Positions 24,439 to 59,200 of a stretch of 64,000 nt of DNA are shown one piece after another; position 1 is the stretch's first letter, and every line of letters starts with the position of its first letter. Made by a program: the position numbers and the translations under genes. The notes under the pieces are model-generated. The model ran no database searches and was not told where the DNA came from. It worked only from the letters and a program-made list of their open reading frames with translations. The stretch is from Psammoneis japonica (Eukaryota), in contig QPGO01000149.1 in assembly GCA_008632985.1 (NCBI GenBank), positions 62,001 to 126,000 on the forward strand, given 5' to 3'.

Positions 24439-24832
24439 ACCTTGATGGACGACGACTCAGTGCGCCATGGTGACTTATCATGATTAATGCCGTATGTAGC
24501 AACTGAAACATAGAAGCACCGGATGAAAGAATAGAGTACTGTTGACATTTTCATGGCCCGTTTGGGTTGGACTATTCCTGCCATGCTAACCGATTCATGC
24601 TCAAATGCAACGGGTTTGTCTTTGCATACTGTTGACGCTATCCCGCAGTCAATGGTAGCATGGCTGCGGAGTGACGTGAGATGCATTCCACAGCATGTGT
24701 ACTAGGGACACTTTCTTTTCTTTGGATTGGTATCTCTAGAGTCCACGGTGATATTTCTTATCGATTGTGTTGGACAGGAGTCGATGGAGCTTGGAAACCA
24801 ACAGACATAACAGGTGATTGTTCTACAGCAGC

Positions 24833-25046
24833 TTTCTCCCTCCAACTACCCAGCCAGCAGATATGGTCACGGTTTTGAAGAGCAATCCAATATACCTGTT
24901 TCTCCTTCTCCCTCCAACTAACCAGCCAGTAGACCACGGTTTCGAAGAGCAATCCAACCCCTTTTTCTCCTTCTCCCTCCAACTACTCGGCCTGTAGATA
25001 TGGTCACGGTTTCGAAGAGCAATCCAGTATACCTGTTTCTCCTTCT
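24833..25046. repeat. Intergenic tandem repeat, ~70-bp unit x3
   Basis: Recurrent TTCTCCCTCCAACTA...CACGGTTT[TC]GAAGAGCAATCCA. Confidence 0.85.
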
Positions 25047-25292
25047 ATTACCAGTGAAAGCCCGGCTTGAGTAACAAACGTATTCATGTCAAACAGAAGT
25101 AGCAAAAATTACCTAATGCTCAAGACCAGAGGTATTGAGACGTCTCGTGACATGTCTCTTCTTCACAGATTCACCGCGTCTCCCCAACTGGTGTCTCCTT
25201 CCCTGCCATAGCCACTTAGTGATATGATACTCTCTACACGCACATCTCGTTCTACGGTCTTATTACAAAAGTTTCTCCACTTTTTATAAAGT

Positions 25293-26138
25293 CTACTTCA
25301 TATTCTTAATGGACCCTTCGATGCCGCGAAGCACAACGTCCACACGCTCCTCGGCGGTTTTTGCAATAAGGAGAGCCGGTCGTATTTCGAGGGACACACC
25401 CATTGCCGCGATTGGATTGATAAGGGCCCCAACCCAAAAGGCGCGATCCGATGGAGACTCTGGCATTGGCATTTCGCCCAAGTCCCCAAGCAACCGATCA
25501 ATTTGCCCTGGTTCTCTCTCGCGTGTTCGTGCTAGTTCGATCCACTCCTCCACTAGACTTTCGAGTTTCCGCGCTTTTGAATAAGCTCGAGCCAACTCCA
25601 TGCGATCATCTGGGTTGATATCTTTCTCGCTGTCGTTGTCTTGAAGGAATTCCACAACTGCCTCTGTCCAACCACCTTGAGAGTCATCCACCGATGATAT
25701 TTCAAAGCGCCGTCCACCTCGCAAGACAACCTTCAAGCCCCCCTCCTCAACAACGGGAGATCCTGCAATTTCTACTTCGACCCCTCTTTTCAAGTGAACC
25801 GGTGTTCCAGACGGAAGCCTCGCCATTCCCATCATTCCAAAATAGGGTGTCTCGTTTGCGATTTGGTGCTTTATCATTTTCATGAAAAGGGGGTTGTTGA
25901 CTGTGATTTTCAAGACCTGTCGTGGCAGCATGCTATCGAGAACAACGAGGGGTATTTTATTTTCATTTATCTCAGACACCCGACTCTTGAGCGACGAAAG
26001 AAAATCGTCGTCCGACATGCTACTGCACAGAAAAGTACGCGATCCTTTCGTCGATGGTGGTCCGGCCAACGAAAATGCCAACGAAACACACATTAACATG
26101 AAAGCGACCAACAGTTGAATTGCATAAGACTCTTTCAT
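25293..26138 (-). CDS. LON peptidase N-terminal (substrate-binding) domain protein, probably plastid-targeted
   Basis: Signal peptide + SLA-F; IPLVVLDSMLPRQVL, FGMMG, VLRGGRRFEI, AFWVGALINP...EIRPALL. Confidence 0.75.
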   Translation of the reverse strand: MKESYAIQLLVAFMLMCVSLAFSLAGPPSTKGSRTFLCSSMSDDDFLSSLKSRVSEINENKIPLVVLDSMLPRQVLKITVNNPLFMKMIKHQIANETPYFGMMGMARLPSGTPVHLKRGVEVEIAGSPVVEEGGLKVVLRGGRRFEISSVDDSQGGWTEAVVEFLQDNDSEKDINPDDRMELARAYSKARKLESLVEEWIELARTREREPGQIDRLLGDLGEMPMPESPSDRAFWVGALINPIAAMGVSLEIRPALLIAKTAEERVDVVLRGIEGSIKNMK

Positions 26139-26349
26139 GATGAACGATGTAGTCTGGTTTATGGTGGATGTTTGTGCTTGACGGTGTTGGCATCGCGTTG
26201 CTCATCGCGTGTTGAATGTTTTGGTTTTTCGAAATTTTTGGCTTGACGCAGAAATGACGTGTTCAACGAACTTTACGGATGGACGGACGGACGTGGTTGA
26301 GCGCAAGGAGGGCGGGAGCGACGACGGGGTGCCGTGTGGCGATGCCATT

Positions 26350-28560
26350 CACATTCTTGTGGTCTGCTTTGACAAGAGACAGGAAACAGGAGACAGTGCA
26401 GACACGACAAGAAGTTGAAACTGCAGCGAGAGACCATGGCAGCTGGCAGTGGTTGACCTCACAGGAAACAGCTTGCTGAAATCACCAACACAGGCGCACG
26501 GCATTGACTGGCCTGTCTTTGAGTCAACAGGAAGAGGAGGAGGAAAGCAGAAAGCCCATCTGTGCCTCTGAGATTTTTGAGCTGAGATGTGAGTTGAAAG
26601 TGCTTTCCCCGTGGTCACGAAAAAAATGAACTCCTGGCTTCTAGCTGTTGTTTTTCTTTCAATCTGCCGCCGCTGCCATGGCAGCCTGAGCTTGGTGGTG
26701 CTGTTGCCAACCAAAATGCAGCAAATCTGTGCATGAGACAAGAAAAAGGAGATGTGTTGCAACATCAGAGCTGCACAGTATGTTGTTGCATTGTTGAACC
26801 CAGCGGCTGTCATTTTTGGGCCAAGAAGCCCAAAAATGAAAGTGCGCCTCATGTGCGCTGCTGCTGATTGCATGCGTCAATGCTGGAAAGTTGGCTGGGC
26901 ACAAACAATTGCAGCGAGAAATGGTCTTCAAACAAGATTGACAATTGTGGGCCAATCTGCTGGCTCCTCTCTTTCTAGACAGCATCAAAGATGATGCCAT
27001 GGAAAGAGCACCCTCCAGCATGAAAAAAGCTGTCAGCACACTTGACAGAAGCCAGAATGTGGTGTCACACATCTGTGCTGTTGTCATTTTGAAAGATGTG
27101 GAGAGCTCGCCATTTTTGTTGTTGTTGACAACAACAACAGAGTTTCAGGCCTGGGCTTGTCTCCTTGTGTTTTTCCTTGAGTGAAAACTTTGCACAGCTG
27201 CTTGTTTCCACCCACGTTCCAGATTGTACAAGCCTTTGAATCATGTGCAACATGCGGCCACTGACAAGAGTTAATGTGTCACGGCGACGTGTTGCAGCCT
27301 TTAAATGTCACAAAGGGCGTGACAAAAATGACCTTTTGTCTGCATGCATGCTGCATTGTGAATTCACAGCGGAGTGGCACATCGCAACCACCAGGCAGGA
27401 GGCCAGGGGTTCGAAACCCTGAGTGGGAGTTGTCTGCAGCAACGTTGATCACTGTCGAACGCGTAAAACTCTGTGCAGTTCTGTATGTTCCTTCGTACGT
27501 ACCCACACTGTTCCGCCAAAACCGTGCAGTGTCAGTGCACGTTAGCAAAGAGCCGCACGGATGCGTGACACATGGGGAGGAGTGCAACATGCAGCCACTG
27601 ATGAGAGTTGGTGCATCACGGCGACGTGTCACAGCCTTTAAATGTCACAAAGGGCGTGACAAAAACAACCTTTTGTCTGCATGCATGCTGCACATGTTCA
27701 ATGAACATCATGCTGGCAGCAAATCACAGCAGCATTGAAAAGAGCTTCTTGAGTGGCTTGATGGTCTTGGTGTGATGCTCGTGCCACTTCTTGAAGTGCA
27801 GCAAAATGACCACATTTTTGGTCAGCTGATCTTTGTCACTCTGCAGTGCCTTTCATCTGCACAGTGCAGCAATCTTGTCCTTGGAAATGTTCTGGCAAGT
27901 CTCTCTCTCTCTGCTTTGCCAGCTCTTTTGCAGATTTGTTGCACACACCACACCAGGGCTTGCCAAAGTTCAACCCTGTGCTCCTGTCAGCAAATTTCAT
28001 GCCAGTGGAGCACTTTGCTGTTAAAAAAAGATGAAGCCGCCCCAGGCTTGACTGTGCAGCACTTTTCAATGCAAGAACAAGTTCTTGAATTGGCGCGCTT
28101 TCAGATCTGTTTTGTGCACCATTTCGCTCTCTTTGTCATTGCAACATCTTGGGCACCCAGTGTGCCTTGAGCACCCAATGCCCAAGAACATCACTGTCCC
28201 AATTTTGGTGTCATGCATGTTGTGAAAAACAGTGCAGACATTGTGAGCTGGTGCTGGTTGAAGAGCTCAGCCGCCCGCTTCAAATGATGAGTGAGAGAGC
28301 CAAACAGCGCACACCACACCTGGCTTGCCCTCTCCTGCTCAATCAGATTTAAGCCCAGCAACCTCCAGATGATTGTTTGGATGACATGGCATTTTTTGTG
28401 TGACACACACTTCCAACTCAGCTCTTTGCTGCTTGCCGCCAAAATCATGCCAGTCATCGTTGCACACTGTGCTGCTGCCACATCAGCAGCCAGCAGAAGC
28501 CTGGCTCTTTTCACCAATGCTGAGGACACTTGATTTTCTCTGCTGTTAATCCCCACTCTT
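26350..28560. other. CpG- and TpA-depleted degenerate block A
   Basis: By eye, CG and TA are nearly absent and TG/CA abundant; no intact gene; hosts the TRIM-like element. Boundaries approximate. Confidence 0.8.
27246..27692 (+). mobile_element. TRIM-like miniature LTR retroelement (447 bp)
   Basis: 110-bp direct repeats 27246-27355 and 27583-27692, each TG...CA with ~10-bp inverted ends (TGCAACATGC...GCATGCTGCA); polypurine tract GGGGAGGAG 27574-27582 abutting the 3' LTR; 4-bp flanking duplication CATG (27242-27245, 27693-27696). Confidence 0.8.
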
Positions 28561-28820
28561 TGAGCAGCTCCATAGAGCCTTTGCGGAGGCCCAACATTGC
28601 CGCCACAGCAGGGACTCTCGCCAAGAGCGCGTGGCCGCACCGCACTCGAGCGAGCCGTTTGCACAGTGTGACGTCATCCTCATTTTTTGATTGAAGTTGA
28701 GATGAGGCTCTCGGTTCGCCGCGCATGTTTCTTGGTCGGTTCTTGGCCATGCACCGTGCAAAGCGATGGAACCACATTTCATTTATGTCGTCCGTTGTTC
28801 CACGATCTACTTTTCAGACA

Positions 28821-29671: not shown

Positions 29672-30220
29672 GTTTCTCCTGTTGGCAAAGATTTCCCAGA
29701 TGGCGGATGCTATGAATGATGATAGAGATATAGAGAGATGTAGATGTGGCCTGTCCAAGATGATAATTTTGCGACCGTTCCAACTGCTCGTCATAGCATG
29801 GGGCTAGAGGTTGCCTCCATTCAAGCGGCTGTGGACGGCAATGGAGAATGACTCAAGAACAGAGTGATTTAAGATAATGAATAATGCTCCTCACTAACTT
29901 CAAAAGAGATTATGCCGTGTTTAGAATGCGTTACACTGTACCTCTTCTCTCTAGAGCTAGTAGAGACAGGCGCAAGTGGGCTTCGTCTCGTCTGTGCGTG
30001 CTGAATTTTTGATCATCGACTGCTTCGACTGCTTCGACTCTTCAGAAACCGCCCGAGCAACTTTGCGATGGTGGCTAATAGAATGCCGCCGACCGCACAG
30101 CCTGTTATGATGACGACAAGATTCATCTTGCGGACCACAACAGCAAAAGAATCTCCGGCCATACTCTAGTGTACAGTGCACGGAGGATCTTAGGTAAGCA
30201 TTAGCTGGATTTGCGCAAAG

Positions 30221-30886
30221 ATGCCTTCTGTTTCGATCAACGTTTGGCTTTTCTTCTGCACCCTTGCTGTCGGGGCTGTATCGGCCCTCGAGGTTGGCGA
30301 CAACCTCTGTATCCAGGGATATGTCATGGATTATTACTGCATTGACAATGTTCGAATGATCGACAATGGCAAAAAGACCCTTGAAAAACCCTTCGACCAC
30401 TCTGTTCATTGCTTGGTGGACGTTTCTGATTGTTACAACTCGGCATTTGAAGTCCTGACTGATCCTGCAACAGACGGAGCGCTCTACACTCGTGGCTACC
30501 GACTCACTGAGGAATCTAAACAAGAAGTTATGTCTCTTGCTTTCAGTGTTGGGAGCTGCAGCAGATGCGTCAATGGATATGACAACAGCAAGCTCGCAAA
30601 TGGATTTCGAGCCGTCTTCAACGTTACGGTGGTCGACCTGAACGAAGATGACGACGACACCCCTCCCACTGTCGTGGTCCATAGTCAAGAATACCCCGAT
30701 CCGACGGATACGAATCCCTGCCTTACCGTCTTTGGCTTAGTTGAAGGTCAAGTTATGGGCAACGATCCGAACATCACGAATCCAGACGATGATGGCTCAG
30801 ACGACGACTCAGCTGCCGGTTGGATTGGGGTGAGCAGTTCGTTTGTCGCCACTTGTTTCATTGCACTAGCCGGTCTTTTGTTGTAA
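30221..30886 (+). CDS. Secreted/membrane-anchored Cys-rich protein, paralog 1 (intact)
   Basis: Signal peptide, domain ALEVGDNLCIQGYVMDYYCIDN...PFDHSVHCLVDV, hydrophobic C-terminus (GPI-like); homologous to 38273 and 41583. Confidence 0.85.
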   Translation: MPSVSINVWLFFCTLAVGAVSALEVGDNLCIQGYVMDYYCIDNVRMIDNGKKTLEKPFDHSVHCLVDVSDCYNSAFEVLTDPATDGALYTRGYRLTEESKQEVMSLAFSVGSCSRCVNGYDNSKLANGFRAVFNVTVVDLNEDDDDTPPTVVVHSQEYPDPTDTNPCLTVFGLVEGQVMGNDPNITNPDDDGSDDDSAAGWIGVSSSFVATCFIALAGLLL

Positions 30887-33800
30887 CGAAACAATAATAG
30901 AGAGTATGCACAACACCTCTAGAAAAGTAATGTGATGGGTCTGCAGTTTATCCAAGTTGACTTTGATTGGTCTTTTTCACGGTACCTGGTACCCTCTAGT
31001 TTATATCGTGTACAGCTGGGCATTGCTGTAGGGCCCTAGGTAGAATTATGGCTATGTACCGAGTGGAGTGTCAACTAAACAGCAGCTCTGAAGGGGTGAC
31101 AGGTGCCACTCAAAATCCCGGGATGGAACCCTGTGTGATTCGCAATGTCGGCCATTTCACACCAGAGCTCCACTTTTCCTCTGTTGCGACCACCACATGT
31201 TCCACTCTTCTTAACCTTGTTTCTATGAAAGCTGCTGAGCCCAAAGTGACCAACTTTTGTTTGTTGCACTTGAACTCTTCCATAGAAACCATGAAAAATT
31301 ATGAAAGACATTTGGAGTTGAAATGCTTGATGTCGCTGGTGCCATTGCCAATCACAGAAATGCAACAACATCCAAGGAATGTGCAAGCGCTTGGCCAAAG
31401 AGGACCTGCTGATGCTGCACCACTGCCACCAGTCACATGGTGGAGTGTGGGAGAAAAAGGTGCTTGAATTGTTCTTTTTGATCCTGAGCATCCCCATAAA
31501 TTCATGTGCACAATTGCTGGAAACAACCACTCGCTGTTGCACGAAAAACAGCACACAATGAGGTCTCTCTTGTGTTGTCAAGATCTGACAAGAACTGAAT
31601 GGCTCAGCATTGTCAATGCATCAAATGTCAACCATTGACTTGTTGGGGCACTTTTCCACTCTTTGTTTCTTTGCCATGAATGGCCCCAGGCTCTGCATGT
31701 TTTTTGCCTCTTTGCCTTGGTGAGGTTGCTCTTTGTTGGAATGTCTTTGTTTGTTTGCAGCTCAGATGCATGATTGGCTGCTTCATGTGGCTTACATCAC
31801 CATTGTTTTGAAGCTCTCTCTGGGAGGGCAAGCCTTTTCTTGGTTTTTAACTGATTTGGTGGCATCTTGACATTGTTGTGAGGAAACCCTGAGATCACAG
31901 CTCACCTGTGCCAGAGCATGACAGCAGATTTGCAGTTGGAAGTGCCCTGTTTCACACAACAAGAGGTGCAGCACAGCAGTCAAAATTTTCAACAGACAAA
32001 GTGGTGGACAAAAGAGGGAGGGCAGGCCTTTGAAATTGGCAAGAGACACAATGCCATTGTTGCAATCAGGTGAGATGCCGTCTGCTCTTGTCACCAAAAC
32101 ATGCTCCAACTCTTCTGTCACAAAGCAAGCAAATTTTGCTTTCTTGCCAACGAAACCTGTGGTGGTCCACCAGCAGAGTTGAGTGTTCAACATGAAAGAA
32201 CACATCTGAGCTGTTGACACATGTGCCATGTGCCTGTTCTTTGTGAAAAACCAGCCAATCTCTGTTCATGTGTGAAGTTGATTTTGTTGGGGGGGGGGTG
32301 GCTTGATTGGGTGAAAATTGCCACTGTGGAGGACAAAGTGTCCATTGAGCTCATGTGCCTCACATTTCAAAATCATTGGCAATTCAGGGCATTAGTGTGC
32401 AGCCTGGCTTGTGCTGTGGACAACTCTGTGGCAGTTGCCCAAGGAACTGGAGCCCACGCCAATTTGGAATGCCCACCGCCCCAGAGCAGGCTCTCTGTAA
32501 ATCCCCCAGATGATTGTCACATGTGCCCCTGCATTTGCGGCAGCTGTGCTGCCCTGCTTCCCAGAAGATGCCATGGTGTTGGAAACACCAGGTGAGGCCA
32601 CTAAGATGGTTGCCATGCTCAACAACATTCTGCAACAGTTCTTTGTGGTGATGATGCATGTGCCATGCTGCTGGCTGCAGTGTTGGGAGGCCCAGCACCA
32701 GCATCCTTTAAAAGCACCAGGGGTGCCAAAAAGGGTGCTGCTGAGGCTTGTGCCAATTCTTGGCCTGAAAGTGCTGTCTTGTTGTCAGTGTCAAATGACT
32801 GGCCTGCCAACAATGTGCCAGTTGCAAGTGTCATGCACTGCTCTTTGCACTGATTTTTCCAGTTGCAGCTCAGGCAGCACCTGTGAGATCTCCCTGGCTG
32901 CTGCTCCCTGGTTGTGATGACCCATTTCCCCACACACCCAATTTGCCATTGTGGCTAAAACTTTTGTGTCTGACTGGCTCTTGGGCTCACATCTTCCACA
33001 ATTTTTGTCTCAACCAAATGAGAAAAAAATGTGCACAACAAAAAAACCATTGTGATGGCCTTGTTTCTTTTGCCTTTGAAACTGCAATTTTGTCAGTGTC
33101 TTGTCATGCCAACAACTTTGCCTTTCTGGTGCAGGCAAAAATGTGTGGGCTGATCTTGCTGAAGTGAGTGAATGGGAAGAGTGGGCAATCTTGTGACTGC
33201 AATGGGTTTGATGCCATGCTGTGTGCTGCTGCAAGGAATGTTGCTTTCAAACCAAGGGGAAGTGAGCACAGGCAGCGCTGTCAAATCATTTTCTTTAACA
33301 AGAAGGCATCACAGCTGTCTCAAACAAAAGTGAGCAGCACACCCAAGAAGACCCAGCACAGACTCTCTCTCTCTCCCTCTCTCTCTCTTGGCAGCACAAA
33401 TGTGAGGGGAGTAAAAACTGTTTTCTGTTGATTGGTCTGCTCTGTGCCCATTCTTTTTCTCTTTTTTGCACATGGGAGAGCAGCTCACACACACCTCCAC
33501 CTCACTCTGCTGCTCTGCTGCTGTTGTTCATTGTGTTGTTGTGTTGCATGTTTTTTCCATTGCACTGCCAGGAATGCACTGCATGCCATGCCACCACAGT
33601 CCTTGAGAATGAACTGCACTGCACCCTTGTTGAGTTGTAGAGAATTGCCTCAATGTTGGTGTCAACTGGCACAAGCTTGAGGACATGTTGTTCCCAAAGA
33701 AATGCAGTTTGCGGACAACATGACCAAAGCAACAAACAGCACACCTGCTGCACAACTCCACTCTTGTGCTGGAGATTGCCCTGATTTGTTGGTCACCATG

Positions 33801-35599
33801 CATGGTGGGAGCTCTTTGAGGCTTGCCACAGAGAACATGATGCTCAAACTGCACCCCTCTCCCCATTGTCAAGAGCATTTCCATCTGATGGAGATTCTTT
33901 CTGAAACATGGGTCACCAGCCCAAAACCCATGCCAGGCTTTTTCCATGAAATGCTGCATGTGTGGGAGGATGGGGGTCATGTTTTCAGCAGGAACTCCTG
34001 TGTCACATTGAAGCCATGGGAAAGTTGGGTCATCTGGCCATGGCACAGCTGCTGCATTTGGTGATGGATGCAATGCCACAGCAGGTGCAGCATGTCTTCA
34101 CAAACAACTGTGCATGGTGGAAGAGCAGGGCGGCCAGAGAACCTTTGTGGCTGAACAAAGCAAAATGTGTGCAATGAAGACATCACACATGAGAAACAAT
34201 GACCAGAACAAATTTGCCAGCCAGCTTGGCCAGAGACCCTAATTTTCTGGTCAGAACATGGTTTTCCAGCTGGGATGTGCCAGTTTTCTGGCCACAATTT
34301 TGCTGGCAATTTTTTTGTGTTTTTCCACCACCACTTTCATGCAAGCAACTTCCATGGGAGAAGTGGCAACAAAGAAACCTGTGGCAAAATGCAAATGATC
34401 TTCACAGCATGTGCACGAAGTCACAAAAATGTTGTTGTCAAAGTGACCTCAGCTCTTTGTGAGGTCTCTGATGCAAGTGTTCAATTGGGTTTCTGGCCCA
34501 AAAATGCATGGCTGCTCTGCACAGTGCAGTGCAGCACAAGGATGCTGCAATGCTCACACAGCAGAAGAGCTGACTCAAACAGCTGCATCAGCATTGCATG
34601 ATCACTGACAGCTTTTCCAGTCACTGACTCAAATGCCACGGAAATTGTGTCGGACATGCCAGATTTTTCTGACATGATGCCTTTGACATCATTGCAAAAA
34701 TGTTGAAGCAAAGAGGAAAGCACAGGATGGCAGCACTTGTGCAACAAGTGTGTGCAACTGAGTTCTTTCTAATCACTTTTTGCAGCAGATCAACAACAAA
34801 TGCACATCAAAATGTTGCAAGGCAATGTGGTCAAAGCATCTTGAATGACACCCAAATGACACCCACTGGCATGATCACTTTGTGCTTCACAGGTGCATGC
34901 AAGACACCCAAACTCAGATGAATCATCAAGAAGGCAAGCTGTTTTGTGCACATGTTGAAACAGGGCTGCAACTTTGACAAATGCATGTCATTTGATGCTG
35001 AGAGAAGTTGGACAGCACACTGAGCAGAGATGGCTTGCCTTTCCCAGATGTTGACCAGGGTGTGGCTGAGCACACAAGGGGGTTTTCTGAAAGCAGTTTG
35101 GGCCCAGGGGAGAGCCTTCTGTTGTGGCACCCTGTGCTTGTAAAGAGCAAGAAGTGCAAAGGCGCACACCCATGACAATCAATTGTCTTGGCTGTGTGAA
35201 ATTGGCTGTTGAGGAATTCAACAAGAAAGTGGAAACTTGAGGTGGCTTGAGCAAGAGAGTGGCAGCACATCATGATGCAAACAAGTGTGCATGGAAAACA
35301 TGGGCAAGAAAAAGAAAAGGAAAAAATGACAAGCATCCTTGGCAACAGAAAAGTCATCCACTGGTGGTGCTGGTGCTGATCATGGCAGTTTGCATGCCTG
35401 CAATGTCACTCTTTCAAATGATGAGTTGACTGCCATTGTTTTGGCAACTTCTGGGATGACACAACCACGCAAATCAAAACCTTTTCAAAATGCAGATGAT
35501 GGAGAGGATGCAAGAAAACAATCAAATTGATGGTTGCGTTTGCTTTTCACAATGGATGGAAACAAGTGGCTGACAAAAGAGACAATTCTCTGACAACCT

Positions 35600-37900
35600 T
35601 TGCATGCCAAACAATGCCCATGTCATTTGATTGATTTGCTGGCATCTTGTGATTGTTCTTGACTGTGCATTGAAGAGGTCACCAAGAAGGAATGCTGCAT
35701 GGCTTTGCTGCTGTCAGCTTGCAATTAATGACCTCAGCTTTGCAGATTTCAACTTCACAAAAAGTTGTCATGCCGCAATGGCACGGCATCACATCTTGAG
35801 AATTTCAACTCCTTTTCACATCCCCCAACCAACCAAGAGGAAGTGGGAGATCCACCAACATTTGAGGCCCATCCAAAGATGAAGCAGAAATCATTGAGTT
35901 TGCAATGTCAAAACTTTCTTGTCCTTCAACCGAGGTTGCCACAGACCATTTGCATGAAACACTGGTGGCACTGGAGTTCTCATGGAGAAAGAAGAGTGGC
36001 TGTTGTGAGAATGAGGAGGCCAAAAACCCATGGATTGCCTCTCTTCCAGCACAGTTGCCAACTGGGTGTGCCCTTTTGGTTTCTGGCATGGACAAAACAA
36101 AAACATGCATTGTGTGTGTTGATGATCATGAACACACCAACAATGCAAGGCTGAGGAATGAGAGAAGGGGCCCCTGACAGTTGACAAAAGAAGAGCAAAC
36201 CTTGTGTTGGACAGCTTCCACAAAAGCAACTGCAATGGACAATGGACCTGGTTTAAGCTGAAGCTCTCCCAACAAAAATGGGACACAAATGCCCAGCAGC
36301 AAAGTCTTTGCTGAACATCACACAGACACTGTTGTTGACCCTGCACATCCAAGCCTTGTGCCCAAGCTGTCTGCACAATTTGAAGGAAGCAAGTGTGTGC
36401 ACAAGGGTCCCAACACAAAGCAGTTCATGACACTTGGACAGGACAATGCTGTTTTCAAGCAGTGCTTGCCAAACACAAGCAGCTGGACAGGTCCAAAAGG
36501 TGAGAGGGTGCTGCCACCCAAAGATGATGCAGAGGATGCAATGCAGTTTCTGTTCCAGTGTCTCAAGGCTGGCCTTGTTTCAGATGAAGACATTTCTGAA
36601 GAGTGGCTCAAAGAGATGAATGACTGGAGCAGGCAAATGCTGCACTGCTGCTGCTGCTGCAAGAGAAGTGTTTGGTGAGAAGCAACATGAGCCAGCCTTG
36701 AAAAAGAGTCCATTTCTGCACAAGATCATGCATGGAACAAACAATGGCAGATTCTGGAACTGTGATTTCATGTTGGTTCAATTGGAATGTTGTGTGTGAA
36801 GGACTGCTTGAAAATGCTGCGTTTCTCACAACTTGAGCACCACCACTTCCCATTTGATCATTCTTGCAGGCACAACAAGCAGAGAGAGTGGATGGACCAA
36901 CCTGTCACAAGCACATTGTGAATGCAGGTGTTGTCAGCAGTTAGAGCAAGATGCATCATGTTGAGATCTTTCAGACAGAGGGGGGCTTTCTCCAGGTCCC
37001 ACCATGCTCAGGCACAGCTGGCATGTCATCTGCAGGGCACAAGCACAAACAATGACACTCAGCAAGGATGGCTGGGGATGACCACAATGGATGATGACAA
37101 GACAACAAGATGCCAATAAATGTGATGCACCTGTCAAGGATCAATCCAAAACTCAAAAGCTCCTGTGTGATGAAATTTCTCTGATGAGCTTTTTCAAAAA
37201 ATGTCAAGACAACATCAGGGAGGCAAGAAGAAGGGTGGGCTGATTGATGTGGTAAAGAGCAACAATGCACCTTTCAAAGAAACCACTCAAAAGGTGAAGC
37301 ATGGATGGGTCAACAAACTGAGAGGATCAAAGCAAATTTGGTGTTGCAAGCAAGAAGGTGGGCGGGCTGACCCAGACAACCCTGGAAAATGCACTGCAGA
37401 TGCTGGCACAAAGAGGGCAAAGACAGAGAGATTGACAAGCCAACATCTCTCCTTTGCTTGATGTCCACTTGCAATGATTTTATCAACTGAAAGATGTTGT
37501 TGCAAATGACAGGTCACAAAATGGGGCAAGACAATTGACAGAGTGGCTGCCCACGAGCATTGCCCAGAAGCGGCAGGGGAGGGCAGCGTTGAACACCCTT
37601 GGGGACTCACAAAGCAGCACTGTGATTTGCAGCCTTCATCAAGGAAGAAAAGGGGAAACAAAACTTTAGAGAATTCAATGTGAGCAAAGAAAGTGCTTGT
37701 GGCTGAAAGGGCGTGTGCTGCAACCGGCTTTTTTGACAAGCTCCTGACAAGAACACATTTGCACTCACATGTGGCTCTTTCACAGCTCACATCTCTTGAG
37801 GTCAAGGAGAGAGCCATCTCTCCAGGGACCATTGAAAAGCTTGTCAAGAAGTTCAAAATGCACCGCAGTGCAATTGACTTTGACAAGGGTTTCATTGTGA
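35600..37900 (+). mobile_element. Degenerate DDE transposase, Tc1/mariner-IS630-like
   Basis: Ordered motifs across frameshifts: GQDNAVFKQ...SWTGPKGERVLPPKDD (36436-36530), SPFLHKIMHGTNNGRFWN, PFDHSCRHNKQRE (~36850), HGWVNKLRG, HCPEAAGEGSVEHPWG (~37560), IEKLVKKFKMHRSAIDFDKGF (37831-37893). These resemble the QDE / FDHSCGH / HCELAGEGIEYSWG transposase pattern. TIRs not found; 5' end uncertain. Confidence 0.7.
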
Positions 37901-38272
37901 GGACGCTTGCGTGCAAACAGGCAATTTTTTGTAGGGTAAAAAAGGTTTGTGCAGCTGCTGGCACACTGCATGAATGCCATCAATGATGTTGCTGACAATT
38001 TTACTTCGGCTTTTTGCATGGCTAACAAATTTTCTAACCACTGACGTGGGATTGACACTGTGTGCTGTACGACGTCGTCATTGCTCAATTTTTGATTTCA
38101 TTCATTTGCCAATCTTGAAATCGCTTGTTTCGCTGCATGTGGTTGTTCTGAGTTCTGAAGTGCAAGAGGTCCTTTCCATCCCCTTTGCATGGCATGTGCT
38201 GCACACTTGCCCCAGTCTCTTTGATGACAGAGCTCAGAAGTTTGGCGAGGGCTGCAGTGACTGACGAGGACC

Positions 38273-39133
38273 ATGTTCATCAGCAACAAGAAGAAATTGT
38301 GGTTCTCCCTCTTTGCCATTGCAGCCACTTCGACCTCTGCTCTTGAAGTTGGTGACAACCTGTGTGTTCAAGGTTGTGTTGTGGACCATTGCTACATTGA
38401 CAATGGTCCAATGATTGACAATGGAAAAATGACTCTTGAAAAGCCCTTTGACCATTCGGTGCATTGCTTGGTGGATGTGTCAGTTTGTTGCAGCAGCCCC
38501 TTTGAAGCATTGACAGATCCTGCAACAGATGGAGCTTTGTGCACTCATGGCCACTGTCTGGATGATGATTCCCAACAAGAGATGATTCAACTTGCTAAAA
38601 GTGTTGGAAGCTGTCACGAATGTGACAATGGATGCAACAGTTCCAAGCTGGATGCGCGGTTCCGAGCCATTGTGAAAGTCACGGTTCTAGATTTGAACGA
38701 GAACGATGATGATGCTCCTCCTCTTGTGCGAATGAATGAACAACAAGATGCCAGTTATCTTGGTGATGATCCATGCCAATCAGAGTTTGACATGGAGGAA
38801 GGCCCGCAAGTTTCTGATCCAACAACTTCTGCACCTGCCCCCAAACTGACTCCTCCTCCAACACAAAGTCCAACAATGGGTTCCACACCCCAGCCTGTGC
38901 CTGGCCCACCTCCTTCACCAACCACCAGCCCATCCACTAGACCTGTGACCACCATGCCCTCCTCAGCATCTCCAACACCAACTGTGATGCCCTCCTCAGC
39001 ATCTCCAACACCAACCACAATGCCAACAATGCAAAGTGCAGTTCTGACAGACCCGCCATCCATGGCCACCTCACAGCCAATCTTTTGGACATCAGTCATC
39101 CTCTCCACTGCACTCTTCACTTTGATGTTGCAA
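38273..39133 (+). pseudogene. Hypermutated paralog of the 41583/30221 surface-protein gene
   Basis: Colinear with 41583-42866 including flanks; 7 of 8 Tyr in the N-terminal domain changed to Cys/His, several CGN Arg to His/Gln/Cys, stop TAA->CAA at 39131-39133; internal deletions in the P/T/S stalk. Confidence 0.85.
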
Positions 39134-41582
39134 CAGGTTGCATCGCTTGCATTGGAACTGTTGGTTTACACCCACAGATGTTTTGTGCTTTTCCTGTGCA
39201 TCATTTTATTCATTCTGCTTCTGCCTTGGACTTCTTCACATTCAAGACATGCTGCCATGCGAATCAAATGCTCAAAGTCTTCAATCCCCCACCAAACGGT
39301 TTCTGCTGTCGCTGTTCATCTTTCCTTTCCTGACATTCAATCAATGACTTTTTTGTGGCCAAATCTAGCAGATGAAGCAACATGCACACAGAAAAAATCT
39401 GTGTGGTTGCTGACAGAGTGTGACACAGAGACAACATGAGCAAAAGGAGCTGCAAGGAGCAAATGACCTCCTCCTCCCACATGAAATTGCCTGCTGACAA
39501 TTCTGGTGCATTCCTGTGGCTCCAGCATGGGTGTGCAAACTGCCTGGCTCTGCAGGTGTGGCTGAGCCTTTCCAATGGCAGCACATTTTACAATCTTTTT
39601 CAGAGTCGGCATTCAGAAAGAGGTGGTCCTCCAGCTGGGAATCATCATGCAAGCAGGGAAAGCTGATTGCTGTCACAAGACAGCTCACTTTGAAGGACAG
39701 TTGTGTTGCTCACAGCACAGTGCAATGATGAGAAATGCCAAATCACTTGAGAGAGTGTGTGATGTGTGGCCCAACTCAAGTGTCAGCATGAGAGACTTGG
39801 CCAGTCTCCATGCTCCAGAGGACCTCACATTGACCATTGGGTGATGGCATCCACATTGCTGGCTGCACAACATGGTGGTGGGTCCATCAACAGTGGGTGC
39901 CACAAGATTTGGAGATTTCCAAGCAAACAAGACAAGAAAAAGATTGCAAGAGAGGAGAGCACTTCTTGGGCATTGACAAGAAATCTAAGAACTCCAAAAT
40001 GTGCTGTGCTGTGTGCAGCCTCATTTCAGTTGAAGAAAAAAAAGCAGCCCAGAGCGCTCACTCTAGAACCATGCAGAGTGGCTGCATGTGAATCTCTTCC
40101 AGCAAAGATGCTGGAAATGGCAATTCAGGAAAAATGAATGCACCACACATGTTGGTTTTGCATGTGCAAAAGTTGTCATTGTCTGGGTTTTGTGACAGCC
40201 AAAAGAACAACCAGAGATGTGCTGTGATGGCATGCCAACAAGAAGAGAAGATCCTGGATCCCCAGGAGCTTTTGATGGCTTGCAAGAGAAAGCTCTCCAT
40301 GTGAAAAGGAGAGAGAACACAGGACACCAGTTGTCAGCTGAAAGATGATCCATCGAAACCAATGTGCATTGTGCAACACTTTCTGCAGCTGCAATTTGTG
40401 CATGCAATCTGCCTGCTGTCTGCACAAAACAAATGTGCACACAAAGTTCTGACAGCAAACACATGCTTTTTTAGCCAGACTGGAGGCTTGCCAAAGGGCT
40501 TTTGTGCGCCCCATTTCCTTTGCACTGGCTGCACTTGCAAAACACAACACAGCAACTGCAAAACAACAAGTTTGACCATGTCAACCAACCAAAAGACAAC
40601 CCCACCTTCTTGTGCAGCACCTGGAAAGAGGCCACCTTTTTAAATGATGTGACAATCTGGCTGCCACAGCACACAAGTTCATCGTGGTTCGCAGTGTCAC
40701 ACCCAGCTGCCCCAGCACCGTTGTTCATTGTTGTGCTTTCATTTTGTTTGTGTTGTGCAATGTGTCATTGTCATTGTTGTTGTTGTCATTGTTTTTGGCT
40801 TGTGCAGGGAAGACACAGGTCATGAGTGTTGAGAAATGATCCTCACCAGTCTGGCAAAGAGGGCCAGAGAAGCAAAGCAGAAAACAGACTGTGCGGCTGA
40901 GGGACAGCAAGCCATGTGGCTCCCCAGAGTGGTGCATTGTGCCAAGGGATGCTGTGGGAGAGCAACCAAGTGGACATGTGCATGACAAGGTGTGGCTTTT
41001 TCAGTGTGAGGTCACTCTCCATTCTTTGCCATGAGCTTGGCGCCATGGCAGTGTCGTTGACGGTTGGTGTGTTGTCTCACTTGGCTCCAAGGCATCTGTT
41101 GGTGTGTTGTCACTTGGCTCCAAGGCATCTTTTGTTGTGAGAGCTGAGCAGTGTTGGATGGCAAAAGGACTGCTAAGTGTATCGTAGGTCACATCACTGA
41201 CAACGAAAGAGATGGTGTCTGCATTGCCTCCAACATGTCTTAGCGGATGTGTCATGGTGCCATTCCACCGGCACAGCAGACACAGGATCTCCGTCAACAC
41301 GCGGTTCGAATGTGTCCTATTACTGATGTCCGTAAGTACGGAAATTAGGCCAATTTATATGTTGGTGGATATTATTGTATAAAAAAGCCTTTCAGGGTGG
41401 GAATGTGCTCACGCATTTTCGCATTTTCCGCTCAAGCAATCTTTCGTCTTTTCGCAGGCCATGGGATCGTTCTCAAGCCCGAAAGGAGGCTGTTCTCCTG
41501 TTTATCGCATAGCGTGTGCTGCACACGTAGTCTCTTTGACGACGGAGCACAGAAGTTTGGCGAGAGATATCTAACGAGGACC

Positions 41583-42866
41583 ATGTTCACCAGCAGCATG
41601 TTGTGGCTCTCCCTCTTTGCCATTGCAGCCGCTTCGATCTCTGCTCTTGAAGTCGGTGACAACCTCTGCATTCAAGGCTATGTTATGGATTACTACTGTA
41701 TTAACAATGTTCAAATGATTGATAATGGGAAAACGACTCTTGAAAAGCCCTTTGACCATTCGGTACATTGCTTGGTCGACGTTTCCCTTTGCTACAACAC
41801 ACCATTTGAAATACTGACGGATCCTGCATCAGACGGAGCTTTGTACACTCGTGGCTACCGTCTGGATGATGATTCCCAGCAAGACATGATTCGACTTGCC
41901 AAAAGTGTCGGAAGCTGCCGCGAATGCGACAATGGATACGATAGTTCCAAGCTGGAAGCTGGTTTCCGCGCCGTTATGAAAGTCACGGTTCTAGATTTGA
42001 ACGAGAACGATGATGATGCCCCTCCTCTTGTACGAGTGAATGAACAAAGAGATGCTAGTTATCTTGGTGATGATCCATGCCGATCAGAATTTGACATGGA
42101 GGAAGGCCCGCAAGTTTCTGACCCAACAACTTCTGCGCCCACTAGGAATCCTACACCAGCTCCGACTACCTCCGAACCGACTCCTCAGCCATCTACCAAG
42201 ACACCAACTGTAAGTCCAGTCACTAGTCTTCCCACCACAAGCTCAACACTAGGTCCTACACTCCAAGCAACAGAAGATCCGGCACCGGTTCCAACGCCTC
42301 AACCCTCGCATTCTCCCACAGTCCAACCATCACAAAGTCCAACGATGGGTTCTACACCCCAGCCTGTGCCATTCCCAACTCGTTCACCAACCACCAGCCC
42401 ATCCACCAGTCCGGTGACCACCATGCCGTCCACAGCACCTCCACCACCAACTATAATACCAACGGTACAAAATCCCGTTCTGACAGACCCGCCGTCCATG
42501 GCCACCTTGCCACCAACTAACAGCCCATCCACTACGAGTCCAGGGACGGACAGGCCATCCACGGCAACTCTAATGCCAACTATGGCCAATACGCCACAGA
42601 GTCCCGTCACGGTGAGCCCCACCGTAGTTCCAACCATGTTGACAATGACGGCGACTCCAACGTCCACGCCAACATCAAACTCGCCAACTTCTCCGACGCA
42701 AGTCGTTTCCGAACCGCCAAGTATGGTGACTGCGTCACCTACTAGCTTTCGTCTACCAACATCAAGCTTAACGGCGGAGAATACATCTGGTGGTGCGCGG
42801 GTGGCGGGAGGTTTCTTGTGGGCATCAGTCGTCCTCTCCACTCTACTTTTTACTTTGATGTTGTAA
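41583..42866 (+). CDS. Secreted/membrane-anchored Cys-rich protein with mucin-like P/T/S stalk, paralog 2 (intact)
   Basis: ATG 41583 with signal peptide, same N-terminal domain as 30221, PTxxPT repeats, hydrophobic C-terminus. Confidence 0.88.
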   Translation: MFTSSMLWLSLFAIAAASISALEVGDNLCIQGYVMDYYCINNVQMIDNGKTTLEKPFDHSVHCLVDVSLCYNTPFEILTDPASDGALYTRGYRLDDDSQQDMIRLAKSVGSCRECDNGYDSSKLEAGFRAVMKVTVLDLNENDDDAPPLVRVNEQRDASYLGDDPCRSEFDMEEGPQVSDPTTSAPTRNPTPAPTTSEPTPQPSTKTPTVSPVTSLPTTSSTLGPTLQATEDPAPVPTPQPSHSPTVQPSQSPTMGSTPQPVPFPTRSPTTSPSTSPVTTMPSTAPPPPTIIPTVQNPVLTDPPSMATLPPTNSPSTTSPGTDRPSTATLMPTMANTPQSPVTVSPTVVPTMLTMTATPTSTPTSNSPTSPTQVVSEPPSMVTASPTSFRLPTSSLTAENTSGGARVAGGFLWASVVLSTLLFTLML

Positions 42867-55872: not shown

Positions 55873-56449
55873 ATGAAGACCGGGGTGTCAGAGCAGAACG
55901 TGCCCGGAGTTGCAAAGCGACAAAGACTGTAACACTGAATGCCTTCTGGACAACAATAGACCTGTTGTATTCACTTGATTTATAATACTTCGTATTCATA
56001 AAAGACAGTCACTCGAATGTTAGACAGAAAATTCGAAGATGCACGACCAAAGTCGATCTTTGGCAAAGGCTGAGACAGCAGGCACCAGAGGGAAAATGCG
56101 CAATGTCAGTTCGGAAGCGGCGGCGGGAGATAGACGAGCAAGTTGAATACAAATAAAAGAAGCATCACTCACGCTGCCAAAGGTGCATCTGATTGTTCGC
56201 TGTCGATGAGGATGGGGATCAAAAAATGATGAGATGATTTTGAATGACGAGAAAGAAGTCGGGATTGGTGGCGTTTTTGAAGTGGCACATCTCTACGTGC
56301 GACAAAGGAGAGAAGTCTGTCCCGGATGATTCAACCCGCCACCCGACCTGCCATGCGGCCCGCGACCCACTGTCTGTGCAGTGTCCCAATTTCAAATGTT
56401 CGTGTTTCATGTTCGTCGTTGCCTTTGTCTGCCTGGAAACGCGTCATCG

Positions 56450-59200
56450 CTGGCACTTGCATGCATGATGAACACGCACTGCAAGGGAAGGAACTGATCA
56501 AGATTCGATTTCCCACTGCTGCTTGTGTGCGTTCACTCCTCTTGTTGCTTTGCACAATGGATGGCAGCTGAAATGCCTGACAACATGCGTGTGATCCAAA
56601 GGGCTTGTGGCATTGCACAGCAAGTCCAGTGCAAATGTGGTGTTGCTTTGAATGAAGGGGGGCTCCTGATGCTTGCTGATGTGTCGGAGAGATGGAATCT
56701 GATGCTGATGTGACAGAGATGGCAAAGTGTCATTTCTCACACTAATGTTGAAGGACATGTGAACTTGGGAATGGCTCAGATGAATGCACTCAAGCTTTGG
56801 TGGAGTGGATTTGTGACAAGATGCAGAGGTGCAGGGGGCAAAAATTGATTGCAGCTGCTGAGGTGATGCCCCGCAGAAGCTCACAAGCAAAGATTGTTGA
56901 AAAGGAGACAGAGTGGGCATCGAGACAAAGGTCAGCTCTCTGGCCAAGTTTGACCCCATTTGCTGTGGCACGCATGAGAGGAGTGCTTTCTTGAACTTGC
57001 TGTCACAGAAGATTGGAGCAATGAAAGCCTCCATTGTGTTGCCCATGCCAAACAAGCACCTGAGGAGTTTGAAGATGACAAAGAGCATCGCGTGCATCAG
57101 CCACCACTTCAGGGCACTGTGTTTTGCAAAAACAACTGTTGTGCACCACACCACATGCTGAAAGACTTCTTTTTCAACACCCTTCCTTGGATGGGCTTGG
57201 ATTTCCTGTTTTGATGCATTGGAAAATGGCTGCAAAGCTTTTTGAACTTTGGCCAACAACCATTGCAATGGTCAAGGAGAACTGAACAAGAGGACAGCTG
57301 TGGCTGCAAGTGTCGTCAACTCAAAACCATTCATTGTCAGAACAAAATGGTTTGTCTGCTCAAAGCCATGTTAGCTGAGTTGACAAAACCACTCATTGCT
57401 CTCAACAAGGGCCTGGACTTGTGCTCCTTGGAACATCAAAAGTTGATGCTTTGTTGAATTGCATTGAAACAACCAGTGCAGAGCTTGTGGCCTCAAAGAC
57501 TGTCCTCAGCCAAACCTTCCTGACCAATTTCTCTAGAGCAGCAGGTGCACATTTCTCAGAAGCTCAAGTTTCTCATTGTTTGCACTGCTCAGTTTGAAGC
57601 ACAGCATTTTGCCAAGCACAACAAAATGTCAAACCTGTTGAGAGGTGGACCATCAGGTGGACAAGGCCATGGTTGTGACAGATGGGGACCTGGTGGACAA
57701 GGACATGGTGGTGGTGGCGGCAGAGGTTGTGCTCATGGCACATTTTGTTTGCGCCAAACTGTCATCAACAAAGTGGGTGCATCCAACCCAACCCATTTGT
57801 TTTTGTTTGAGAAGTGTGGTCATTTGCATGTGCCCTGCCTTCTTCAAGCATGCAAGTGCATGAGTGGCAGAGGTGCTGGAGGAGGTCATGGTCACAGAGG
57901 AGGACATGATGCAGGATGTGGTTGCAATGTTTCCAAAGTTGAGCCACTTGAGTTAAAGCCACCAGAGCAATGTGGAGCTTGTGCTTGCTTGTTCTTGATG
58001 GTTTGGGGTGCCAGCATCTGTTCTTGTGATGCGTGTGCATTGAGTGCCTCCTGTGCCATGCATTCCAGCATTGCAGCTGCTGTCAGTGCAGCCCCACCCA
58101 GCCACTTCCATTTCAAGAAATGTCAGTGTTGTGACAAAGCTCAGCATTTGTGCTGCATTTGTTGTTTCAACTGCAAATCAAGCTTTGACTGAGCCTGAAC
58201 ACTGTGCAACAAACAAGAGTGTGGTGTGCCCATGTGGGTGCATGTTGTGCAGGCAGGTTGGTGCACTCACATTGTGACAATCCATCAAGGTGGCAGTCAA
58301 ACACACTCCCAGCAAGATGAGTGTGCCACCGGGAGTGACCATGGGCATTTGAGCTCAAGCACTTGCTTGAAGAAGGCGCACATCATTGAAGTCCAAAGCA
58401 TGATTCTGTGTCCACAGAGCATCACAGAAAGAGGGAGAGGTTTGTTTTTAAGACCTGCATGCCATCGGCCCAATGGCCCAGCATCAGACTCCTTCCCACT
58501 GATGTGCTCAAGGAAGGATGGATCACACACCAAGCAGGCTGCACTGCAGCTTTTTGTGATGTTGAAACTTCTGAAGGGACTCTGTGGACTTCTCAAGCAG
58601 TTGATGAATGCTTTCATGAGAAACCACAAGCCAGTTTGCTCAAGCATGGATGAATGCCATTGGCCACAGACCCTTGTCTGCACTTCAAGGAAGGTGTGGT
58701 GTGCACTGTGCAAGTTGACGACACAGTGTTCACTCACAGGAGCGTGTGCGTTTGCATCTGAGGAGAAGACTCGCAAGCCAGGAGTCACACTGACAATGAA
58801 CACATGAACATGCACCTCAACCCAGGGATGAAGGAGAAGTTGGGAACTCCATTTCTACCCTCCAGCCTGGTCTGATCAACAAGGGAAGGTCCTGCGCACT
58901 GCCCATGTGGATGATGCAATGGCATCTCTGCCCCAGTCAGCTCTGCCTGAGCCTGTTTGTGCCAACACGGACAGCCTGCCCTTCTGCAAACCCTGCAATT
59001 ATCATTCCGTAGTTGGAACATTGATGCACTTGACATTTGCCATAATTTCTAGAGAATGACTTTGAGCAAACGTCTGTCTACCTTTGTGTTGTTGCATGCC
59101 AACCTCCAAGAGCTTTGTTGCTTGCATTGCAAGCTCTGCATTGTCATTCGACTGTGCTGTCAAAAGAAGAATCAATCAAGAGAGCTCTGGACTCCAACGC
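56450..59200 (+). mobile_element. Degenerate Copia-like LTR retrotransposon fragment (gag/protease), CpG/TpA-depleted block C
   Basis: GWAWISCFDALENGCKAF*TLANNHCNGQGELNKRTAVA (57189-57305) resembles diatom Copia gag (..GR.A...HYNG.GELNKR); GGQGHG repeats are consistent with mutated GGRGRG; AHVGACCAGR (~58230) resembles the protease motif DSHADTCCAG. No LTR, RT or integrase recognised. Confidence 0.6.

Follow-up and report, generated by a model that had tools for sequence, protein, structure and literature searches.

In fungi, repeat-induced point mutation (RIP), which depends on RID/DNMT4, hypermutates transposons by transitions specific to one dinucleotide and scrambles the dating of their long terminal repeats (LTRs); its polarity is C>T, and it creates TA. 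In the alga Bigelowiella natans, two integrated viral regions gained 231 new mutations, 230 of them A>G or T>C, all at TpA and about 1000x above background, and the main text of the same preprint (Mettrop et al.) describes TpA-poor sequences with transposon domains, suggests transposons as targets and proposes an ADAT2-like deaminase (bioRxiv 10.64898/2026.01.13.699255). Here we describe a 64,000-nucleotide stretch of the diatom Psammoneis japonica (assembly GCA_008632985.1, contig QPGO01000149.1, positions 62,001 to 126,000 of the forward strand; hereafter the window), in which a 447-bp LTR element and the host DNA around it have lost their TA dinucleotides to TG and CA. In spectrum the diatom signature matches the TpA hypermutation of B. 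natans, and by this analogy it would represent a second lineage of a process described once. That the observation is genuine and its pattern explained is almost certain, and it is very probable that its cause is a host process acting on chromosomal DNA in putative silent domains, beyond repeats and hundreds-fold above background.

The element, on the forward strand, consists of a 110-bp direct repeat (27246-27355 and 27583-27692) around a non-coding internal region of 227 bp (27356-27582). It starts with TG and ends with CA, a polypurine tract, GGGGAGGAG (27574-27582), directly adjoins the 3' LTR, and a 4-bp target-site duplication (TSD), CATG, stands on both sides (27242-27245 and 27693-27696). 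A genome search with the element gave 321 candidate copies, the best 40 of which were scored. The copy set used here comprises 80 fetched loci, 76 of them distinct after removal of the duplicate rows L031, L036, L058 and L122; they are the best-scoring among at least 305-321 candidates and thus a non-random sample. Identical 4-mers flank 52 of the 58 listed copies, and at the locus itself a contig of run X1 links 27241 directly to 27693, skipping 451 bases, i.e., the element plus one TSD, and so represents an empty site. The TSD, the polypurine tract, the many copies and the empty site therefore support a mobile, non-autonomous element resembling the terminal-repeat retrotransposons in miniature, or TRIMs, whose hallmarks of short TG...CA direct terminal repeats, a total length below 1 kb, a TSD, mobility and a polypurine tract are all present; the same evidence bears out the starting assumption of a first-pass annotation of this DNA, that the direct repeats are LTRs of one insertion. 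No autonomous partner appeared among the 40 best matches listed in each of three genome searches; these matches were short copies of the element or pieces of it, and no search was directed at a partner.

A recount of the LTR pair gave the same 11 mismatches in 110 bp as the first-pass annotation, all of them transitions, at LTR positions 11, 20-21, 28-29, 32-33, 48-49 and 84-85. Across the family, LTR pairs show a total of 693 transitions against 16 transversions in 77 rows, one of which is a duplicate. In the 67 pairs for which both LTRs are covered, the median number of differences is 10 (range 1-20), so that the pattern is not due to chance and the window copy is typical. The counts that follow take as reference L005, the least-mutated copy, with which 75 other copies were compared (columns 133-134, 146, 206 and 440-441, where L005 itself is unrepresentative, were removed). 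L005 retains 35 TA steps, its own LTRs differ at 1 base, and all four doublet sites, at which the window LTRs oppose CA to TG, read TA in it. Over the LTRs of 76 copies, the four sites read TA/TG/CA/CG 14/51/83/0, 40/32/75/0, 39/87/22/0 and 36/52/57/0 times; since they carry TA, TG or CA and never CG, their ancestor was TA. Of the two origins offered by the first-pass annotation, ancestral CG or TA, TA thus holds at all four sites and CG falls away, which also settles the comparison with other genomic copies that it had proposed. Its reading of position 11 as a CG decayed to CA is reversed, as 146 LTRs carry CA and 1 carries CG: the 5' LTR of the window has a derived CA>CG change. The opposite polarity, with TA derived, was considered and rejected: TG or CA sites of L005 became TA only 3 and 2 times in ~2000 each, TA-rich copies are present in both sub-lineages, and a dead gene paralog in the window (below) has lost tyrosine codons to Cys and His.

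The loss of TA is close to saturation. The 34 TA sites of L005 read TA 568, TG 799, CA 1120, CG 7 and other 8 times in the remaining copies (n = 2502), i.e., 1926 of 2502 have been converted to TG, CA or CG; the 24 CG sites read CG 1642, TG 64, CA 69 and other 6 times (n = 1781), so that 133 have decayed and 92% are intact. The near-saturating mutation claimed for both dinucleotides therefore stands at TA and not at CG, where 1642 of 1781 persist. Arithmetic on the copy counts gives 1.48 hits per TA site vs 0.08 per CG site, a ratio of ~18 that is a lower bound because TA saturates; a hazard ratio of 155, inflated by the same saturation, was set aside. In the 8 least-hit of 57 copies, 83 of 267 TA sites have changed and 1 of 190 CG sites. 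Transitions at non-CpG G number 16 in 11,235, which makes A in TA ~500x faster (a relative figure, not one per generation), and the process is, as had been suggested, both fast and targeted. CpG decay in the element is shown to be a separate and much slower process; it is advanced in the older, dead paralog (16 of 27 CG sites), and certain methyltransferase-like genes are TA-erased yet CG-rich, so that the two processes are separable. Methyl-CpG deamination in diatom transposable elements (TEs) resembles the present case in its TG and CA products and in the domains it affects; it differs in that it starts from CG, a dinucleotide the doublet sites never show, and in being at least ~18-fold slower here. 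According to the cited part of PMC9998398, diatom TEs are CG-methylated by DNMT5; this accounts for the slower CG loss.

For LTR dating the consequence is large. LTR pairs diverge at 697 of 7862 columns (8.9%) overall and at 48 of 4282 (1.1%) once TA and CG sites are left out, so that naive dating is too old by about 8-fold, as the first-pass annotation had warned. Its view of the LTR pair as a mutation recorder holds in part: opposite outcomes are visible, while five further TA sites altered alike in both LTRs leave no trace in the comparison. Altogether 26 of the 34 TA sites of the window copy have been hit, 19 of 22 in the LTRs, with 9 of 11 altered in the 5' LTR (TA is retained at LTR positions 27-28 and 57-58) and 10 of 11 in the 3' LTR.

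The context of the changes is narrow. Among 5009 A after T, 1936 became G and 8 underwent transversion, the spectrum that distinguishes B. natans. Per base, A>G reached 641/1320 in T[A]T, 740/1555 in T[A]C, 182/591 in T[A]G and 373/1543 in T[A]A, where saturation lies near 0.5; grouped by the 3' base, this is 1381/2875 in T[A]Y vs 555/2134 in T[A]R. Outside T contexts the figures drop to 78/2349 in A[A]Y, 61/2808 in C[A]Y, 2/2346 in A[A]R, 3/2274 in C[A]R and 9/2746 in G[A]N. The context rule was reproduced in 19 copies fetched after it had been found, and the NTAN 4-mers surviving in 127 kb of depleted DNA follow an additive 3'-base rule (T 2.85, C 2.0, G 1.0, A 0.2; R2 0.98), although these counts by themselves do not separate the +1 from the -2 position.

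The TAA/TGG difference at LTR positions 28-29 (tandem TAA>TGG at 27610-27611, in the 3' LTR) belongs to a recurrent class, as TAA sites of the copies became TGG 55 times, CAG 12 times and TAG 0 times. TGG did not arise via TGA, because pre-existing TG[A]C changed only once in 284, and a path via TAG is unlikely, because comparable CTAA/TTAG sites survive in 26 of 129 cases in the same copies. More generally, of 148 A>G events off TA, 119 have a TA no more than 2 nt away; 97 affect the strand of the TA hit and 15 the other strand, and a site-stratified permutation on 57 copies gave a same-strand coupling of 71 vs 51 +/- 3. A concerted tandem event is favoured, and part of the coupling could be sequential.

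Both strands are hit. A>G on the top strand gives TG and A>G on the bottom strand CA (799 and 1120 cases, respectively), and opposite outcomes at one TA site in the two LTRs yield the TG/CA doublets. Where both LTRs have been hit at one site, the outcome is the same in 281 cases and different in 164, with 260 agreements expected under independence (z 2.1); the near-independence indicates that most hits came after insertion and that heavily mutated copies were seldom parents of new ones. The idea that the 5' LTR is attacked before the 3' LTR found no significant support over all copies (64 vs 44 sites, p 0.07; 21 vs 26 copies). In the young copies L043, L123, L054 and L044 the hit sites in the 5' and 3' LTR number 6/0, 8/0, 9/1 and 6/1.

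The element lies in a TA-erased island of 2.4 kb (26250-28700), whose flanks are single-copy except for one 76% paralog piece and contain 5 TA in 996 bases and 4 TA in 1008 bases. X1 contigs span both flanks, with 12 mismatches over 1408 bases and 9 over 748; X1 is possibly the source sample of the assembly, and its contigs are possibly collapsed alleles. As far as testable, this agreement shows that the LTR mismatches are not an assembly artefact. A spread of erasure as a halo from the insertion was rejected, as X1 has the empty site and nearly identical erased flanks; the island was therefore mostly TA-erased before the element landed. Among the listed X1 variants are positions 28117-28118 and 28154-28155, where one allele has CA and the other TG, so both alleles of the island went on being hit, and the element was overwritten once it had landed there. 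The sequence of events is thus shown: a TRIM with identical, TA-rich LTRs inserted into a largely TA-erased stretch, and its TA sites were then turned into TG or CA one by one. Erasure is confined to sharply bounded non-genic blocks and TEs, single-copy host DNA included, with an observed/expected ratio (O/E) for TA of 0.05 in depleted and 0.56 in genic DNA. Besides the island, the window holds a larger block nearly without TA and CG (31250-41000; O/E 0.03-0.10 at 32-38 kb) and a third TA-erased block (56400-58900). In the larger block, on the forward strand, lies a dead paralog (38261-39100) of the intact gene at 41349-42866; its 19 TA sites have become TG in 10 cases and CA in 7, with 2 kept, tyrosine codons of the intact gene read Cys or His, and its 27 CG sites comprise 9 CA, 7 TG and 9 kept.

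As to the chemistry, we lean, with some reserve, toward enzymatic adenine deamination in T-A-pyrimidine, which fits the near-pure A>G spectrum, the strict 5' T, the preference for a 3' pyrimidine and the same-strand bystanders. Adenine in 5'-T-A-pyrimidine would be deaminated to hypoxanthine by a zinc deaminase of the TadA/ADAT2 type or of a protist ADAR-like type, and the change would be fixed as G at replication; the enzyme would sometimes also edit the next adenine on the same strand, giving TAA>TGG. A site once turned into TG or CA ceases to be a target, so that CG hardly ever appears and the record becomes saturated. A bolder and only tentative extension is that diatoms and chlorarachniophytes share an endogenous DNA adenine editor, perhaps ADAT2/3 or a protist ADAR-like enzyme without a domain for binding double-stranded RNA (dsRBD), which would be guided to silent chromatin and rewrite T-A-pyrimidine with bystander edits, a counterpart of RIP with reversed polarity across two branches of the stramenopile-alveolate-rhizarian (SAR) group.

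Candidates are available in the genome. There are ADAT2-like and TadA-like open frames, labelled from their motifs, and two editase-domain genes that fall into separate clades (100/100), one with matches named ADAT1 and the other ADAR-like. The latter is diatom-wide and apparently intact, with three exons and no RNA-binding domain listed; a search of an atlas with it named only the editase family, and a metagenome scan gave one weak locus. Its locus (L125:2747-4376, G000:C79) directly adjoins a TA-erased block. Hypoxanthine is removed by the PF02245 glycosylase, which was not found in the genome, though its absence is not proven. Among published enzymes, natural TadA acts at UACG (in the cited part of PMC10586758), protist ADAR-likes without a dsRBD are known, with three diatoms in Table S8 and B. 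natans in a provisional dataset only (the parts cited of PMC11946409), an ADAR-like gene is present in Phaeodactylum, and human ADAR edits deoxyadenosine in DNA/RNA hybrids at TAG 94%, AAG 81%, CAC 53%, AAT 43%, GAA 27% and GAC 19% (values taken from PMC5389660). A separate locus, L066 (G000:C79:88500), encodes a fusion between a zinc deaminase domain and a 2OG-Fe(II) oxygenase, which probably serves nucleobase catabolism.

Several observations weigh against adenine deamination of this kind. No enzyme is linked to the process, and each candidate is a lone gene of ordinary appearance in which no chromatin-binding domain was seen; a deaminase family that is expanded or linked to chromatin was not found among 9 PF00383, 5 PF14437 and 4 PF02137 matches, other deaminase families and adenine methyltransferases not having been searched. 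The genome also encodes Endonuclease V as well as polymerase iota-like and eta-like genes, and gene presence alone links no candidate, deaminase or polymerase, to the process. The 5' order of human ADAR matches the one found here, but its preference for a 3' G is opposite to the 3' pyrimidine (cited portions of PMC5389660 and PMC11334849). The 3' rule itself is imperfect, as the favoured strand agrees with the +1 (3') reading at 17 of 24 asymmetric sites, and of 57 copies 56 and 51 retain TTTAAA, whereas GTTAAT has been hit in most cases; context wider than the neighbouring bases matters. Hits show no strand coordination along copies (same-strand neighbours 761 of 1420; null 748 +/- 15, p 0.21) and no significant clustering within copies (p 0.10), so that there is no sign of long processive runs on single-stranded DNA. 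Finally, very old copies are under-sampled by the choice of the best-scoring ones.

The alternative that survives best, though we consider it unlikely, is a Y-family polymerase of the iota or eta type working in repair patches of silent, methylated domains, where insertion of G opposite template T in 5'-R-T-A would give T>C (A>G) and occasionally tandem TT>CC. An iota-like gene is present (best matches Pol iota E 2e-26, kappa 2e-14, eta 1e-12), as are two eta-like genes, and TA and CG loads per copy are correlated (rho 0.56); yet the least-hit copies carry 83 of 267 TA changes with a single CG change in 190 sites, which leaves hardly any CG change to trigger repair. That human Pol iota favours G opposite template T is stated in the title of a cited paper, and somatic hypermutation has WA hotspots and Pol iota-dependent tandem mutations (cited portion of PMC6423074). 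The A:T phase of somatic hypermutation, due to Pol eta/iota at WA, does favour A>G after T and yields tandem mutations as here; in the diatom, in contrast, there are almost no transversions (8 vs 1936 transitions at A after T), AA followed by purine is spared (2/2346), though a WA rule would hit AA, a linked C>T deamination phase is missing, and strand-coordinated patches are not seen.

Quite improbable, in our estimate, is a mutagenic and undescribed modification of A or T at TpA in silent chromatin, analogous to 5-methylcytosine at CpG. The symmetric dinucleotide, the attack on both strands with random choice between them and the domain-wide action do resemble methyl-CpG decay, and 27 matches to genes of the C5-methyltransferase fold are found in the genome, but same-strand TAA>TGG and off-target A>G beside TA are unexpected from the spontaneous decay of a marked base. 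We know of no mutagenic base mark at TpA. Diatom DNMT4/RID-like enzymes have no function assigned in the cited part of PMC9998398.

Editing of element RNA or cDNA before integration, of the ADAR or APOBEC type, would suit a retroelement with A>G changes in a genome with an ADAR-like gene, but is refuted as the main source, and so very improbable, by hits on both strands within one copy and by LTRs that differ nearly independently; moreover, changes also occur in host DNA present as a single copy, in the paralog of a host gene and in two target duplications. Hardly more credible is a general avoidance of TpA, GC-biased gene conversion or a sequencing artefact: TA is under-represented in genic DNA as well (O/E 0.56), but depleted DNA stands at 0.05 with sharp borders, X1 contigs match the assembly, and context refutes this group of explanations, since A[A]R and C[A]R are changed in only ~0.1%. 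Ordinary methyl-CpG deamination with doublets from ancestral CG, to which the CG methylation of diatom TEs (same part of PMC9998398) and the decay of CG to TG/CA in the element (133/1781) and the dead paralog (16/27) had lent colour, is practically excluded, being refuted at the doublets by CG counts of 0 vs 14-40 TA per site and by true CG sites that are 92% intact.

B. natans shares A>G/T>C at TpA leading to TpG/CpA; the DNA hit is foreign-type and silent there (nucleocytoplasmic large DNA viruses and virophages) and putatively silent here, and the rate, very high there, is apparently very high here too. The present case differs in that the host is a diatom and the targets are a TRIM without coding sequence and host DNA of single copy, approaching saturation over evolutionary time, in its 3'-pyrimidine rule, tandem TAA>TGG and slower CpG decay, and in that its rate is inferred and that of B. 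natans measured. The main text of the preprint does not contain the words diatom, CpG, trinucleotide or tandem, and its supplements may bear on context; among open PMC papers and bioRxiv, no report of TpA hypermutation in diatoms was found. RIP as the process was rejected, as two of its defining features, C>T polarity and the trigger by duplicated sequence, are lacking: the polarity here is opposite (TG/CA>TA 5 in ~4000, A>G dominant), TA has been erased from the single-copy flanks and from the allele with the empty site, and strand coordination is not observed.

A drive from A:T to G:C in silent eukaryotic DNA opposes the usual AT bias and has so far been measured in one alga (the 2026 preprint). 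The element provides a series of ages, from untouched to saturated, in a second lineage, and what the present analysis adds is this copy series, the rate estimate, the tandem events and the empty allele. Any candidate must reproduce in vitro the context rule and the tandem events, which makes the enzyme question testable, and a natural deaminase for adenine in genomic DNA, if true, would be of interest to base editing. In such genomes LTR dating, the building of TE consensus sequences and annotation are biased, and saturation conceals further hits.

Further features of the element invite comparison with the TRIM and TRIMp3 elements Cassandra, Helenus and Ajax, which, in the portion cited of PMC10886601, have likewise short LTRs, a non-coding interior, a polypurine tract and A-/B-box-like motifs; the 4-bp TSD is that of animal Helenus, and the main text of that paper does not contain the word diatom. 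Read against the motif wording given there (TRGCY/YGG and GGTTC), the internal region has an A-box-like motif at 27367-27377, like an RNA polymerase III (Pol III) promoter by resemblance only, and a B-box-like motif, GGTTCGAAACCC, at 27408-27419, whose CG is intact in 57/57 copies. The two are in sense orientation, close behind the 5' LTR and inside the internal region, whereas those of Helenus/TRIMp3 lie inside the LTRs; going by their sequence they possibly form a Pol III promoter, in a location unusual for a TRIM. A tRNA origin was rejected, no tRNA homology being detected here (Rfam, 0 matches on L005 at E<=5; ARAGORN, 0 genes, 6/6 loci). At element positions 167 and 174, the CG is unaltered in 57/57 copies. 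LTR positions 55-82 (27300-27327), with a core TTTAAA followed by the inverted repeat TGTCAC...GTGACA, are nearly invariant among copies and may serve as a promoter or form a protected structure.

Several copies near genes also have flanks free of TA over 500-1000 bases; beside L046, L007, L029, L025 and L041 such zones give way to normal TA levels. The left edge of the island (26050-26620) is 72-76% like a region at L072 upstream of a HIRAN/SNF2-helicase-like gene (labelled by reading its frame), and the L072 locus likewise adjoins a TA-erased block. C5 methyltransferase-like gene copies at L089, L090, L091, L095 (G000:C301, C297) and L098 retain 16-23 TA in ~3.5 kb and 139-167 CG, some contain stops, and they are possibly element-borne methyltransferases; at L092 (G000:C34) a chromodomain-like frame (E 2e-5, narrowly below the cut-off) stands before the methyltransferase frame, an arrangement that resembles the chromodomain forms of DNMT4 in the cited part of PMC9998398. 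Near-identical loci on two contigs (G000:C41/C317; L121/L122) suggest that the assembly holds some duplicated haplotypes. In the window, a family of secreted-looking proteins has three paralogs (30194-30886, 38261-39439 and 41349-42866), the middle one being erased within the depleted block; imperfect tandem repeats spaced at 65-72 bases occupy 24823-25070, and the named matches of the ribosomal protein S4 encoded there are almost all diatoms, at 79-88% identity.

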